Below, in pieces: positions 1,949-6,292 of a stretch of 7,007 bases of DNA. A program made the position numbers and the translations under genes. The DNA is from a virus (Duplodnaviria; Heunggongvirae; Uroviricota; Caudoviricetes). The DNA is taken from the IMG/VR virus record IMGVR_UViG_2690316343_000005; one strand, written 5' to 3'. Each line of letters starts with the position of its first letter. The stretch's first letter is position 1. Below the pieces are notes generated by a model. That model was not told the DNA's origin, did no database searches, and worked only from the letters and a program-made list of their open reading frames with translations.

Positions 1949-2230
1949 TTATCCAGTGACGGTAGTCGAGGCTAAGGGCTTTTTTAACCTCGCATCCGCG
2001 CCTGCGGTAACACTGAATGAGCCATTCGGCCTGTTCTTCAGTGCATGGGGGATGCTGGTACCAATCAGATTTAAATGCGTGAGAGCGCCGCCCGTGCCTG
2101 CTGGCAAAGACGGCTGAATTATCAGAATTGTGTAGTCTGGAAGGCAGTGGCTGACAATAGCGCCATTCTCAACGCGCACAGTATAGAGGCCATCTTCACT
2201 AAAAATTTCACGTAATTCTTCGATTTTCAT
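1949..2230 (-). CDS. Small hypothetical protein, copy 1 (MKIEELREIFSEDGLYTVRVENGAIVSHC...); shares first 29 codons with 2757..3044
   Basis: ATG at 2230..2228 preceded by GGAAGG 9 nt upstream. N-terminal 29 codons lie inside the 252-bp direct repeat; the C-terminal ~64 aa are unique. Confidence 0.4.
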   Translation of the reverse strand: MKIEELREIFSEDGLYTVRVENGAIVSHCLPDYTILIIQPSLPAGTGGALTHLNLIGTSIPHALKNRPNGSFSVTAGADARLKKPLASTTVTG

Positions 2231-2400
2231 CAACAGAATCCTTCCAGATAAATAGCACTCCCCTGTTCGGGGTCCATCCCTCTTCTCCCTGCGCGCTACT
2301 TAAGTATTTTTGATTCTATTCCGGCACCATCTAAAACTTCAAACGCGTTGAAAATAAAAACAAAAACCCGCCGAAACGCTGAGAGATCACAGCGATGGGC
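2149..2400. repeat. 252-bp direct repeat, copy 1 (hok-type terminator hairpin + promoter-like region + 5' end of small ORF); truncated by gap
   Basis: Aligns without indels to 2962..3213. Flanks are near-identical (gctgacaat...cttaagt and cccgccgaaacgctgagagatcacagcgatgggc); the central ~60 bp diverges. Confidence 0.8.
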
Positions 2401-2411
2401 NNNNNNNNNNN
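2401..2411. other. Assembly gap (11 N)
   Basis: Run of N in the sequence; it cuts a terminator hairpin on one side and an ORF on the other. Confidence 0.95.
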
Positions 2412-2718
2412 ATTGCTCTGCGGCTTCGCTCAGAGCTGGCGTATGTTCCCGGCCTACTGATTCACACAGGTAATCAACGAAACCGGACACCAGTTTTCGT
2501 TCGCGAGGCGTGATCGCCCCACCGACCGGAGTCCAGTAATCGAAACCCAGTTGCAGGAGTTTGAAAAAACGCTTGTGGAATGCGTAGTTACACACACGCT
2601 TAAAGTCTGCGTGTATCCACTCACCTATTTTGATTTGATGCAGAAAATCGCAACTCTCCGGCGTCGCCGGGAGAAGTAATCCGGAAGAGGTTTGTTTGAC
2701 CAGTTGTATATGTGCCAT
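2412..2718 (-). CDS. Hypothetical protein, partial (C-terminus lost in gap): MAHIQLVKQTSSGLLLPATPESCDFLHQIKIGEWIHADFKRVCNYAFHKRFFKLL...
   Basis: ATG at 2718..2716 with GGAG 7 nt upstream. Open frame continues to the N-run at 2411. The ORF-track TTG extension to 2760 has no RBS. No family recognised. Confidence 0.5.
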
Positions 2719-2756
2719 CGGCTTTCTCCGGTGGCACGGTGTTACACAGCAGGAGT

Positions 2757-3044
2757 TCAATCCTGCTCAAGATTGTAGATGAGTTTATTCTTCAGCAAAA
2801 GCAGAAAACCAGCCTTAAAACCAATCTCTTTCAAAACCCGTAATGATGTGACAAATTCGTCCTCACGCAAAATAAAACCGTCCGTCAGAAGTCCATTACA
2901 AAAATAAAATAACACAGCACCGCTCTTCCTTTGTTGAGATTGCAAACATCTAATGCGGCAATGGCTGACAATCGCTCCATTCTCAACGCGCACAGCATAG
3001 AGGCCATTTTCACTAAAAATTTCACGCAATTCTTCGATTTTCAT
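2757..3044 (-). CDS. Small hypothetical protein, copy 2 (MKIEELREIFSENGLYAVRVENGAIVSHC...), divergent C-terminus
   Basis: 95-aa ORF beginning inside the second 252-bp repeat copy, with the same RBS context as copy 1. Sits just downstream of the hok terminator and a promoter-like TTGATT-N16-TAGAAT. Confidence 0.4.
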   Translation of the reverse strand: MKIEELREIFSENGLYAVRVENGAIVSHCRIRCLQSQQRKSGAVLFYFCNGLLTDGFILREDEFVTSLRVLKEIGFKAGFLLLLKNKLIYNLEQD

Positions 3045-3293: not shown

Positions 3294-3633
3294 TTACTTC
3301 CTGGATTCGTAGTCTACGAAGACAGCGACCTCCGTCTGGCCGGTTCGGATTCGTACCTCACAGAGGTCTTTCCTCGTTACCAGTGCCGTCACTATGACGG
3401 TNNNNNNNNNNNNNNNNNNNNNNNNNNNNNNNNNNNNNNNNNNNNNNNNNNNNNNNNNNNNNNNNNNNNNNNNNNNNNNNNNNNNNNNNNNNNNNNNNNN
3501 NNNNNNNNNNNNNCTCCGTCTGGCCGGTTCGAATTCGTACCTCGCAGAGGTCTTTCCTCGTTACCAGTGCCGTCACTATGACGGTTAAACAGATGACGAT
3601 CAGGGCGATTAACATCGCCTTTTGCTGCTTCAT
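3294..3633 (-). CDS. hok: Hok-family type I toxin (51 aa), split in this assembly by the N-gap and a 72-bp duplicated overlap
   Basis: ATG at 3633..3631 with AGGAG 9 nt upstream. Reads MKQQKAMLIALIVICLTVIVTALVTRKDLCEVRIRTGQTE (3514..3633), then gap, then ...EVAVFVDYESRK with stop at 3296..3294. Removing 112 N and the 72-bp duplicate gives exactly 156 nt. Near-identical to E. coli HokD/RelF as recalled. Confidence 0.85.
3402..3513. other. Assembly gap (112 N) flanked by a 72-bp near-identical overlap (3330..3401 vs 3514..3585)
   Basis: The flanks differ at two positions (G/A, A/G), both synonymous in hok. Confidence 0.95.
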
Positions 3634-3839
3634 AGCCTGCTTCTCCTTGCCTTTCGGCATGTAAGAGGCTAACCTACATGTGCAAAGCATGAAATTGGCC
3701 TCAGATTAATGTTAAGCGTCTTGCCGGACGCGTAATGTTAACTGGGGCTTTTCTCTATCTGCCTTTTGGTGTTCATGCCTGAAGCAGATAGCCTCAAGCA
3801 CCCGCAGTCATTCTACTTACCTCGCCAATATGAAATCAA
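3634..3839 (-). promoter_or_regulatory. hok promoter and long 5' leader (tac-like element; expected mok/sok region)
   Basis: Minus-strand -35 TTGATT (plus 3834..3839), 18-nt spacer, -10 TAGAAT (plus 3810..3815). The leader begins with GCGGGTGCTTGAGG, complementary to the 3' UTR element. The ~170-nt leader fits hok/sok-type loci. A sok promoter could not be pinpointed. Confidence 0.4.
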
Positions 3840-3860: not shown

Positions 3861-4547
3861 TCACTCCTTCTCTTCTTTACCGTAGTGGAGTTGACCAATT
3901 TTGATAAGAGGGCGTCCCTGAGATTTGCGGTGTAGATTGGTATCGCGCAGAGAATACACACAGCCACAATATTCCTGCTGATAGAATTTTTCGCGCTTGC
4001 TGATTTCAATCATACGGGACGAGCCGCCCTGCTTGCGCCAGTTATAATCCCAGTACACCATGCCCGGATAATGCGCGACGGCTCGCCGCCCACAGTCGTT
4101 AACCTGCTGCATATTTTTCCAGCGTGAAATGCCCAGTGAACTGCTGATCACACTGAAACCATTTTCAGCGGCGTACAGCGCTGTCCGCTCAAAACGCATG
4201 TCAAAACACATGGTGCAACGGATCCCTCGTTCGGGCTCCCATTCCATTCCTTTGGCTCGTTCAAACCAGTTGTCTGTGTCGTAATCAGCATCAATAAACG
4301 GCACGCCGTGTTGTTCAGCAAAGCGAATATTCTCATCCTTACGAATTAAATACTCTTTCTGAGGATGAATGTTCGGGTTGTAGAAAAAGATGGTGTAGTC
4401 GATTCCCGAGGCCTGAAGCGCCTCCATCACCTCACCGGAACATGGAGCACAGCAAGAGTGCAGTAGTAGTTTGTTTGCCCCGTTTGGGAGCTCCAATTTG
4501 GGCCGTTTGAAATCAGCAACTGTCATAAATATGTTTATTGGGGTCAT
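3861..4547 (-). CDS. queH: QueH-like epoxyqueuosine reductase homolog (DUF208 family, Fe-S enzyme)
   Basis: 228-aa ORF with [15 protein letters not shown] near the N-terminus plus conserved [19 protein letters not shown] and QEYCGCVYS motifs typical of DUF208/QueH. An alternative ATG lies at 4526; neither start has a clear RBS. Confidence 0.8.
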
Positions 4548-4694
4548 AAAAATATCAAAGAGTGTAGCATTAGAACGGGGCTATCGGAAACAGATGTGTG
4601 ACTGCTCCCCGCCCTTTCGGGTGGTCTCCTGATGATTTGAGGGTGCAGAAATCCCTCCGGTTAAGGATTAAATTTTTAACAGTGCTAAATTTAA

Positions 4695-5108
4695 TTATTC
4701 AGTTCTGGATTTTGTCGCCCTGCGTATCCGCGCTTTCGCGTTACGCTCAATCTGTATCAGCTTTTCTATATTTCTCCGCCTTTCCTGTTCCTCCTGGCGC
4801 AATAGCCTTACATCATCTGCCAGTCTGGTTTCTCTTTTTGCCACAGAGAGCATCCAGTCAAACGGCTCCACAACCGCACCGCAGATTTTACAGCGGACCT
4901 GACGCTCTTTTTCGTCAACCCGGACAGAGGCGTGATGGCAATATGGTCTTTCCGATGGCTCATAAAGAAAATTAACCTGATTACGAGGGTCATCCTCTTT
5001 TACCGGAAATAAAACGATATTGCTTAACTCATCTTCTGGTTTTATTTCCATGCTCCTCTCCTTTGATGCGAATGCCAGCGGTAATTGAAGCCTGATAGCT
5101 AATTTCAT
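4695..5108 (-). CDS. Hypothetical zinc-ribbon protein with basic coiled-coil C-terminus
   Basis: C-H-H...C-x2-C cluster (YCHHASVRVDEKERQVRCKICG) followed by a charged helical tail (RLLRQEEQERRRNIEKLIQIERNAKARIRR). ATG at 5108 abuts the upstream TGA (AGGAGG 11 nt upstream); an alternative ATG at 5051 has AGGAG 6 nt upstream. Confidence 0.6.
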   Translation of the reverse strand: MKLAIRLQLPLAFASKERSMEIKPEDELSNIVLFPVKEDDPRNQVNFLYEPSERPYCHHASVRVDEKERQVRCKICGAVVEPFDWMLSVAKRETRLADDVRLLRQEEQERRRNIEKLIQIERNAKARIRRATKSRTE

Positions 5109-5531
5109 TCACAGTATCGCCTCCTGAAAATTACCCTGATAGAAAGCCAGTACACGCTGCATAGCTTCGCTCTTCCGGCACTCGCGACAGATTATATTCA
5201 GGCGCCTGTCGTAGCGGCGTATTTCTCCGTCAGGTAATGACCAGATAAGGTCCGGATCAACAACAACCGGTTTCCTCACCTTTACTCTCGAGAGTTTTTT
5301 GCGGGCGCTTTGCCAGTCCTTGCGAGCCTGTTCAGACGGGAATAAGCCGTAGCCAGAATTATATACATCACCACTTGCGACCAGTTCTATGCATAAGCGA
5401 CCGACAGACGCACGACTGATACCTGTTTCATCTGACAACTGCCGAATCGTGACCCGACCGTCCTGATGCACGAGTTCCACAATTCGCGTCTTCAGTTCTT
5501 CCCGCTGTTCGGGAGTAAAAGGTTTCGCCAT
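5109..5531 (-). CDS. Winged-helix DNA-binding protein, possibly YdaW/DUF977-like, with C-terminal CxxC
   Basis: 140-aa ORF. N-terminal HTH-like segment (TIRQLSDETGISRASVGRLCIELVASG) and CRECRK near the C-terminus. AGGAGG lies 4 nt before the ATG. Its position after the DnaC-like gene mirrors ydaU-ydaV-ydaW in Rac prophage, as recalled. Confidence 0.65.
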   Translation of the reverse strand: MAKPFTPEQREELKTRIVELVHQDGRVTIRQLSDETGISRASVGRLCIELVASGDVYNSGYGLFPSEQARKDWQSARKKLSRVKVRKPVVVDPDLIWSLPDGEIRRYDRRLNIICRECRKSEAMQRVLAFYQGNFQEAIL

Positions 5532-5545
5532 AAATCCTCCTGAAA

Positions 5546-6292
5546 CTACTTAACAACCCTCGAATGGCTAACATTCGGACGCCAGCTCTCCCAGTTAAAA
5601 TTCACCCAGCGCCCGCCGTTCATGACCATGCGATCCATCACCCGCTCGCCGAGCAATGTTTTCATCACCTCATAGTTCAGGTTTGTCAGCATCCCCACGC
5701 TGCGCATCGACGCTGTCCGGCGATCAACAATCTGGTGCAGCACCACCTGCTCGTTTTTCGTCTCGCGCTGAATGCCAATTTCATCAAGAACCAGCAGATC
5801 CACTTCGCACAGCTCCCGCAAAAATTTTTCGCCTGACTGCCCGTCGTCATAGCTGGCGTGCAGGGCGCTCATAACATCAGCCACGGTAACCACAATCACT
5901 GTCTGACCGTCTTTCAGCAGGCGATTCCCGATAGCTGCCGCTAAGTGATTCTTCCCGGTACCAGGTTTTCCGCTGAACGCAAAATTTGTACACCCGGTCA
6001 TCAGTTCATCGGCGATGGATTTCGCCTGGCTTAACGCGTATCGCTGGCCGTCGTTCTGCACCTGGTAATTCGCAAACGAGCATTTACGGTGCAACGGCTG
6101 GATGCCTGAGCGATTCAGAATTTTTTCCACCCGCAACTGGCGATTCAGGCGGTTGATCTCCTCGCTACGTTTCTGGCCTTCAGCAAGTTGCCACTCGCGC
6201 CACTCCGCTACCGTTCTGAATGGGGCGGTTACATGTGGCGGGGTCAGTCGGCGGATGCGTTCCAGAACGCCGCCTGTCGCAATATTTTTCAT
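5546..6292 (-). CDS. DnaC-like replicative helicase loader (IstB-like AAA+ ATPase)
   Basis: 248 aa with Walker A FSGKPGTGKNHLAAAIGN and Walker B DLLVLDEIG. Collinear high similarity to E. coli DnaC as recalled (NRSGIQPLH, LGERVMDRM). Confidence 0.9.
   Translation of the reverse strand: MKNIATGGVLERIRRLTPPHVTAPFRTVAEWREWQLAEGQKRSEEINRLNRQLRVEKILNRSGIQPLHRKCSFANYQVQNDGQRYALSQAKSIADELMTGCTNFAFSGKPGTGKNHLAAAIGNRLLKDGQTVIVVTVADVMSALHASYDDGQSGEKFLRELCEVDLLVLDEIGIQRETKNEQVVLHQIVDRRTASMRSVGMLTNLNYEVMKTLLGERVMDRMVMNGGRWVNFNWESWRPNVSHSRVVK

Follow-up and report, generated by a model that had tools for sequence, protein, structure and literature searches.

The two genes that lie between the helicase loader and QueH in this prophage are probably independent delayed-early genes of a Rac/lambda-like rightward operon, the first a Ren-family gene and the second a mobile cassette that carries its own ribosome-binding site. 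These genes, here called gene A and gene B, were analyzed within a 7,007-nucleotide stretch of DNA (the window), which comes from a lambdoid (Rac-like) prophage of E. coli/Shigella and is 99.6% identical to E. coli FDAARGOS_943 over 1 kb. All of the genes around the two are carried on the minus strand, and in transcription order they run from a DnaC/IstB-type loader through gene A, gene B and QueH to a hok/sok locus (Rfam sok, 117 bits). The original prediction had two open reading frames filling positions 4695-5531 between the loader and QueH, and both the coordinates and the order were correct, with the frames on the minus strand.

Table 1. Features of the window around gene A and gene B. 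Positions are counted from the first letter of the window.
Feature	Position	Strand	Basis and remarks
Helicase loader, DnaC/YdaV-type	5546..6292	minus	IstB_IS21 1e-19; PHROG_50 1e-82; RefSeq ydaV; upstream neighbor of gene A
GGAGG Shine-Dalgarno of gene A	5536..5540	minus	Within the 14-nt gap between loader and gene A; read from sequence
Gene A, 140 aa, DUF977/Ren-like	5109..5531	minus	ATG 5529-5531, TGA 5109-5111
Gene A winged helix-turn-helix, residues 7-65	5337..5513	minus	HTH_24/HTH_IclR/MarR_2; AF2; Foldseek
Gene A C-terminal Ren motif NIICRECRKSEAMQRVLAFY, with CxxC inside	5139..5198	minus	BLASTP to lambda Ren residues 73-92
Spacer of 57 nt from the gene A stop to the probable gene B start	5052..5108	minus	Frame open in the window
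Shine-Dalgarno of gene B, AAGGAGAGGAG	5053..5063	minus	Conserved in every genomic context of gene B
Gene B, 118 aa, predicted zinc ribbon and long basic helix	4695..5051	minus	ATG 5049-5051, TAA 4695-4697; PHROG_1621
Gene B predicted zinc ribbon, residues 36-62	4866..4946	minus	Ligands C38, H40, C54 and C57
Gene B predicted single long helix, residues 63-117	4701..4865	minus	AF2; ends in invariant NIEKLIQIERNAKARIRR
QueH	3861..4547	minus	PF02677 1.9e-65; downstream neighbor of gene B

Both proteins had been described as uncharacterized, and the profile searches proposed for them gave a different answer in each case. Gene A belongs to the DUF977 family: its residues 1-136 aligned with positions 1-134 of the 134-position Pfam model (PF06163) at 116.5 bits, against a cut-off of 22.1, and its RefSeq entry (WP_001118169) is named DUF977 family protein. 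It is also a member of PHROG_142, 'Ren-like exclusion protein', which gene A matched at 2.7e-44 and lambda Ren at 1.6e-41. Gene B falls into PHROG_1621, and for this protein the original description stands, because the family has no functional name. A search of the literature for DUF977, LygF, the protein accessions of the two genes and the PHROG identifiers returned no functional study.

Direct comparison of gene A with lambda Ren by BLASTP aligned only 20 C-terminal residues, NIICRECRKSEAMQRVLAFY with NLVFKECRQSAAMKRVLAVY, at 60% identity and E = 3e-7, and lambda Ren reached no score on the Pfam DUF977 model. Pairwise likeness is limited to this 20-residue motif, which is kept across DUF977 alleles, and otherwise PHROG clustering carries the link. 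A remote relationship between gene A and lambda Ren is nevertheless supported by profile, motif and position together. Gene A is a real gene, with dN/dS values of 0.18-0.23.

The winged helix with a CxxC tail that had been read from the letters of gene A was confirmed in its first part. The N-terminus matched the Pfam models HTH_24, IclR (HTH_IclR) and MarR (MarR_2), and the AF2 model has pLDDT above 90 at residues 7-65, with a poorly defined C-terminal part and low confidence at the Ren motif. Foldseek aligned the winged helix at probability 1.0 to IclR, MarR and GntR regulators, all of them generic winged helices, and the PADLOC models gave gene A only weak generic winged-helix matches (E = 0.0017 or worse). 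The CxxC is present as C115-x-x-C118, inside the Ren motif, but it is not a recognizable four-ligand metal site, because the first cysteine is missing in lambda Ren, one DUF977 allele has CRESR in its place, and the aligned DUF977 alleles contain no further conserved ligands beside the CxxC.

Synteny was assessed in the best 80 of 508 IMG/VR loci, in which gene B is at least 97% identical and which are nearly all from E. coli; neighboring genes were typed by tblastn against a hand-built panel, with coverage of 40% as the threshold. In 59 of the 62 assessable loci from this sample, the gene directly upstream of DUF977 is one of the replication module. These genes are a DnaC-type loader (22 loci), DUF1627, which was counted as replication-module-associated solely because it follows P (20 loci), an O-type gene (11 loci), a P-type gene (4 loci) or a lambda-O-like gene (2 loci). 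The winged-helix allele found in the window comes directly after a DnaC-type loader in all 19 of its loci, and the gap of 14 nt places gene A next to the replication genes in the window itself; in lambda, where the order is O-P-ren, ren likewise follows P. The mosaic accessory slot named in the original prediction is therefore a fair description of gene B and the region after gene A, but not of gene A, which travels with the replication module. The outcome that was to count against that prediction was found for gene A, which matches a named family (Ren-like, PHROG_142) and stays with the replication module regardless of QueH at 59 of 62 loci, and was not found for gene B.

As the last gene of the prophage replication module, gene A is an ordinary member of the Ren family. 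In the classical phenotype, lambda ren mutants become sensitive to Rex exclusion. The lambda gene is transcribed together with O and P and has been described as "likely involved in DNA replication", and an interaction between the Ren and Rex proteins was detected by two-hybrid assay (bioRxiv 10.1101/2021.04.19.439022). By homology to lambda Ren, the product of gene A is most likely an accessory to phage replication and a protection against Rex-type exclusion.

The second gene had been read as translationally coupled to the first. The longest open reading frame for gene B spans 4695-5108 and encodes 137 residues, and its ATG at 5106-5108 directly abuts the gene A stop codon at 5109-5111. This junction is genuine in the window; as a start site it is contradicted by comparative evidence, which places the start of gene B at 5051, behind its own ribosome-binding site and 57 nt past the gene A stop. 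Homologues from E. coli, Kluyvera, Klebsiella, Serratia, Yersinia, Erwinia and Pluralibacter all start at the equivalent of M20 of the long frame, and the PHROG_1621 profile (5.1e-56) aligned residues 20-136 of that frame with its positions 1-120 of 134. RefSeq/PGAP annotates gene B as a 118-residue protein (WP_001343130), and the length was 118 residues in each record examined. The Shine-Dalgarno sequence AAGGAGAGGAG stands before the ATG at 5049-5051, and about 32 nt upstream of this codon, including the Shine-Dalgarno sequence, are constant in all contexts, with the sequence beyond them changing completely. The 19-residue N-terminal extension is missing from all homologues outside the gene A-adjacent context.

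The abutting codon is much more variable. Across 79 loci, the codon next to the TGA position is ATG in 16, GTG in 25 and GTA in 5; the other 33 have unrelated upstream sequence, with in-frame stops in 23 of them. The abutting ATG is allele-specific. In each of the 46 DUF977-adjacent loci the frame runs open through the 57-nt spacer, and 41 of these loci have ATG or GTG at the abutting position; this open frame leads ORF finders to lengthen gene B to 137 residues. Given a conserved start with its own Shine-Dalgarno sequence and a variable abutting codon, the 137-residue frame and the apparent coupling are most likely by-products of ORF calling. A translationally coupled pair would have a conserved abutting start and a second gene lacking its own ribosome-binding site, and neither feature was found here. 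Occasional re-initiation at the abutting ATG or GTG is possible and would give a longer isoform of gene B.

The zinc ribbon and basic helical C-terminus proposed for gene B were borne out by the alignment and the AF2 model. In 32 homologues down to 44% identity, the zinc ligands C38, H40, C54 and C57 are invariant, as is most of the C-terminal helix, in the pattern L84-R85-x-E87-E88-x-x-R91-R92-x-x-I95-x-K97-L98-I99-x-I101-E102-x-N104-x-K106-x-R108-I109-R110. The same homologues share an N-terminal peptide, E-x-E-L-x-N-V-V-x-F-P. In 48 distant members the three cysteines are still invariant and H40 is at least 90% conserved. Like that of gene A, the AF2 model of gene B represents a monomer and is of moderate confidence (mean pLDDT 76). 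It shows an N-terminus of low confidence, then a small beta zinc ribbon, and lastly a continuous helix over residues 63-117, for which block-mean pLDDT is 91-95 at residues 81-110. With four ligands, two knuckles and beta-hairpins (strands 43-46 and 51-54), the protein is predicted to contain a generic zinc ribbon. Its N-terminal half is acidic, and the last 16 residues have a net charge of +6.

More specific relatives of the fold were not found in the databases searched. Residues 36-73 scored 21.1-21.5 bits against Zn_Ribbon_TF (PF08271), below the cut-off of 29, and the protein is not assigned to that family. The best Foldseek match was the TFIIB zinc ribbon 1pft at E = 0.3, with nothing under this value in fold searches of the model against the PDB and BFVD, and sequence and profile searches against the PDB gave nothing beyond S27e at E = 0.55 and coiled-coil noise from keratins. 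The match to TFIIB goes no further than a likeness of fold.

Gene B is a member of a large catalogued family, PHROG_1621, that lacks both a Pfam model and a functional name. No NCBIfam family, Pfam family or PADLOC match was obtained for the protein. None of its 148 close homologues carries a functional name, and nearly all are labeled 'hypothetical' or 'putative bacteriophage protein'; the few other labels belong to fused or automatically annotated sequences. An exhaustive profile search of clusters formed at 50% identity recovered 1616 representatives at E of 1e-3 or below, 260 of them at 1e-10 or below. Distant members keep the signature [VI][VI]xFP, CxH, CxxC, DPFD and ERNAKARI, and Pfam searches with 48 distant and 10 longer members found no shared domain, the one exception being an Ead_Ea22 fusion. 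Contigs of about 70% GC carry some of the members, and one of these is a phage contig with a Mu-type portal. The metagenome contigs that bear distant members are mostly about 1 kb long; on one 23-kb contig, small early genes surround the gene B relative, and a probable terminase gene and a portal gene lie downstream of it. Relative to the copy in the Stx2a phage ArgO145, gene B has a dN/dS of 0.028, and relative to other genera, where synonymous sites are saturated, pN is 0.17-0.35. Gene B is a real gene under strong purifying selection.

These features describe a protein with an acidic N-terminal peptide containing [VI][VI]xFP, a CxH...CxxC ribbon and a helix of 55 residues whose end is invariant and strongly basic. 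Our best guess is that gene B encodes a zinc-stabilized, probably dimeric coiled coil, the basic helix of which would attach either to nucleic acid or to a core host machine that is highly conserved. Structure searches against the PDB, BFVD and PDB profiles gave no match that supports nucleic-acid binding. To our knowledge, the N-terminal motif does not fit the consensus expected for beta-clamp or SSB-tip mimicry.

We also considered that gene B may encode a host-takeover or anti-defense protein whose invariant helix inhibits a specific host protein, with no binding to nucleic acid. A host-protein target stays plausible because the gene is placed in the ea and nin accessory regions, the home of such genes, and because a conserved short linear motif is found in the low-confidence N-terminal region. 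The gene also behaves as a moron-like mobile cassette, and a helix that is invariant on all faces fits a fixed protein target. However, the same invariance and the very low dN/dS disfavor a fast arms-race role: a dN/dS of 0.028 and a helix invariant across genera would be atypical of an arms-race protein, except one aimed at a core machine. The positive charge of the C-terminal tail and the failure to match any known defense or anti-defense family also weigh against this reading, which we consider possible but unlikely.

The genomic distribution of gene B argues against a fixed association with gene A. Among the best 80 of the 508 IMG/VR loci, DUF977 lies immediately upstream of gene B in 42, with DUF977 alleles of 55-100% identity. 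In another 24, DUF977 lies within 1.5 kb, separated from gene B by DUF4406, RseB-domain, Ea22-like, methyltransferase or small ORFs. DUF977 is absent from 11 loci and 3 could not be assessed, so that 66 of 77 loci have DUF977 no more than 1.5 kb upstream. Other phages place gene B elsewhere. In ArgO145, a 99%-identical copy is found in the early-left region, far from any DUF977, where it overlaps the end of an Ead/Ea22-like gene, and a 33%-identical homologue in Enterobacter phage Tyrion also follows an Ead/Ea22-like gene. Klebsiella phage ST15-VIM1phi2.1 and prophages of Kluyvera, Erwinia, Pantoea and Photorhabdus carry the homologue where the nin-like region ends, immediately before the Q antiterminator gene; its upstream neighbor in these positions is NinG, RusA, DUF1364 or HNH, usually with a 4-nt ATGA overlap. 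Conversely, the slot after gene A is occupied in other prophages by Ead/Ea22-like, DUF4406, methyltransferase, RseB-domain or DUF7167 genes. In complete E. coli genomes, 2135 copies of gene B, nearly all at least 95% identical, were found in 1679 of 5426 genomes (approximately 31%), compared to at least 5014 DUF977 copies in 3617 genomes, a megablast count that is too low for divergent copies. Most DUF977 genes must therefore lack gene B. Gene B is a separately mobile cassette whose commonest site in E. coli is the accessory slot right after gene A.

It could still be argued that the two genes form a functional, co-translated module in which a winged-helix regulator or adaptor is paired with a zinc-ribbon effector in exclusion, anti-defense or a toxin-antitoxin-like role. 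Immediate adjacency in 42 of the 80 loci, DUF977 within 1.5 kb in 66 of 77, and two A-B fusion proteins known from single records (P0040 and P0042) would fit such a module. Gene B directly follows gene A with an equal 57-nt spacer across DUF977 alleles of 55-100% identity, and the recurrence of this junction could be due to a functional preference and not to chance. But an obligate pair is contradicted by gene B copies without gene A in ArgO145, Tyrion, the Klebsiella phage, Erwinia, Pantoea and Photorhabdus, and by the at least two-fold excess of gene A in E. coli. Moreover, lambda Ren has no such partner, gene B has its own Shine-Dalgarno sequence, and PADLOC gives neither protein more than generic winged-helix noise. 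We judge a two-gene module to be improbable.

The preferred reading, in which gene A and gene B are independent, accounts for this distribution as follows. The cassette would comprise the Shine-Dalgarno sequence, the gene B reading frame and approximately 30-45 nt on each side. Recombination would have inserted it into the nin-like region, the ea region or the site just before Q in different phages, and its position behind gene A in this prophage would be happenstance.

The proposed three-gene block with QueH fared worst. QueH is the next gene after gene B in 11 of the 76 assessable loci, and these 11 represent a single lineage because all 11 carry a DUF977 allele 100% identical to that of the window; in the other 65, gene B is followed by ArgO145 gp16-like, DUF7167-like or other small ORFs. 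Although gene A, gene B and QueH are contiguous and co-oriented in the window, in those 11 loci and in 22 E. coli genomes with coverage of 80% or more of a 1-kb query, the restriction to one lineage, the other genes after gene B and the 147-nt gap between gene B and QueH make a three-gene accessory unit highly improbable. QueH is cargo specific to the lineage of the window and not a member of a conserved block. We also considered, and rejected, a promoter, terminator or regulatory RNA in the interval that separates gene B from QueH, which has no Rfam match, a folding z-score of -0.9 and no consensus site on the coding strand.

Together, these results indicate that the A-B pair is a product of lambdoid mosaicism and deserves little weight as a module. 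For annotation, neither the 137-residue frame nor the TGA-ATG junction should be taken as evidence of coupling. DUF977 proteins can be read as Ren-family proteins encoded at the end of four or more kinds of replication module, which provides a much larger comparative base for the old and poorly understood function of ren. Carried by roughly 31% of complete E. coli genomes and under very strong purifying selection, gene B is a reasonable, though not exceptional, candidate for functional screens of phage accessory genes. We tentatively suggest, while thinking it rather unlikely, that the gene B family is a general host-takeover or regulatory factor whose basic helix and [VI][VI]xFP peptide target a universal host machine or nucleic-acid structure. 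If true, the target would lie, for example, in replication, recombination or transcription. The family has about 1600 clusters and extends from enterobacterial phages to phages of about 70% GC. The recurrent adjacency and occasional fusion of gene B to Ead/Ea22-like proteins might point to a shared pathway.

Several known systems resemble one or the other protein. TFIIB-type and S27e-type ribbons align with residues 36-73 of gene B with the metal ligands in register, but gene B has CxH and not CxxC as its first knuckle and lacks a cyclin or ribosomal context, and those proteins have no counterpart to the long basic helix. The small zinc-binding nin-region proteins NinD and NinF of lambda are, like gene B, small, cysteine-containing and encoded between the replication genes and Q; homology was rejected, with hhalign probabilities of 2.7% for NinD and 10.6% for NinF. 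Gene A, as a full-length DUF977 member, has close phage homologues labeled LygF after the protein of the Salmonella Sdf region. We know of no functional evidence behind the names DUF977 or LygF, and the latter presumably only signals linkage to ydaO. YdaW of the E. coli K-12 Rac prophage shares the slot of gene A, directly after ydaV, and has an N-terminal winged helix. However, YdaW belongs to PHROG_630, matches PHROG_142 at only 2e-4 and aligns to gene A by BLASTP at E = 0.054. YdaW overexpression blocked the retron-Sen2 toxin (preprint 10.1101/2020.06.22.160242), but this result cannot be transferred to gene A because YdaW is in a different family, and YdaW was rejected as a functional proxy. 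A close counterpart of gene A is lambda Ren. Ren is shorter (96 residues, compared to 140 in gene A, which has an extra basic linker and beta segment) and follows lambda P rather than a DnaC-type loader, and the Rex-related phenotype known for Ren is putative, by homology, for DUF977 proteins. Nonetheless, gene A matches the same PHROG profile over its full length, shares the N-terminal winged helix and the C-terminal motif CRxSxAMxRVLAxY, and occupies the equivalent position on the same strand, straight after the replication genes.

The zinc-ribbon gene appears beside Ead/Ea22-like genes in other phages. In the Stx2a phage ArgO145 (99% identity) and in the Enterobacter phage Tyrion (33% identity), an Ead/Ea22-like gene lies immediately 5' of the zinc-ribbon gene, and two protein records (P0241, 256 residues; P0002, 202 residues) are natural fusions of a complete Ead_Ea22 domain with the zinc-ribbon protein. 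This adjacency, together with the fusions, may point to a functional connection, or to a junction that recombination favours.

The sequence directly 3' of the zinc-ribbon gene also has isolated matches in three other places: Actinobacillus phage vB_Apl-pPE4, phiSTEC1589-Stx1c and Rac-SA53. An Rfam search of this segment produced no match and folding revealed nothing unusual; it could be a mosaic boundary sequence. QueH, which follows the zinc-ribbon gene, is lineage-specific cargo, and its family is entered in PHROGs as phrog_3217, of unknown function. A hok/sok locus is placed 3' of QueH, with the hok ORF region partly masked by a run of Ns (N runs lie at 3402-3513 and 2401-2411). Elsewhere in the window, two ORFs share a near-identical N-terminus (MKIEELREIFSE[DN]GLY[TA]VRVENGAIVSHC) and flank a third ORF, an arrangement that suggests local duplication or rearrangement.

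Features of the window and of the compared loci
Feature	Location	Strand	Remarks
ORF with shared N-terminus	1949-2233	(-)	
ORF between the two	2296-2760		by eye, resembles a truncated DUF1367 gene
ORF with shared N-terminus	2757-3044	(-)	
hok/sok type I toxin-antitoxin locus	3628-3803	(-)	sok RNA, Rfam RF01794, 117 bits
QueH, prophage-borne epoxyqueuosine reductase	3861-4547	(-)	PF02677, 1.9e-65
Segment 3' of zinc-ribbon gene	4609-4702		~95 nt
Ead/Ea22-like and zinc-ribbon neighbours (ArgO145, Tyrion)	L003 6047-7415; L129 2621-3896		
ydaW, E. coli K-12	L097 4753-5313		

The DUF977 gene (5109-5531) is itself uneven. Across more than 3600 E. coli genomes, its C-terminal two thirds are 82-91% identical at the DNA level, whereas the N-terminal third, encoding the winged helix (wHTH), has diverged. 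Moreover, the wHTH allele of the window was found behind a DnaC-type loader in 19 of 19 cases. These patterns suggest either a mosaic joint within the gene or a wHTH fitted to its replication module.

YdaW of E. coli K-12, whose overexpression is reported to block the retron-Sen2 toxin (preprint, 10.1101/2020.06.22.160242), fills the same post-loader slot as the DUF977 gene, yet it is a member of PHROG_630, a separate family. Thus, several unrelated wHTH families seem to hold the Ren position, the slot right after the replication genes.
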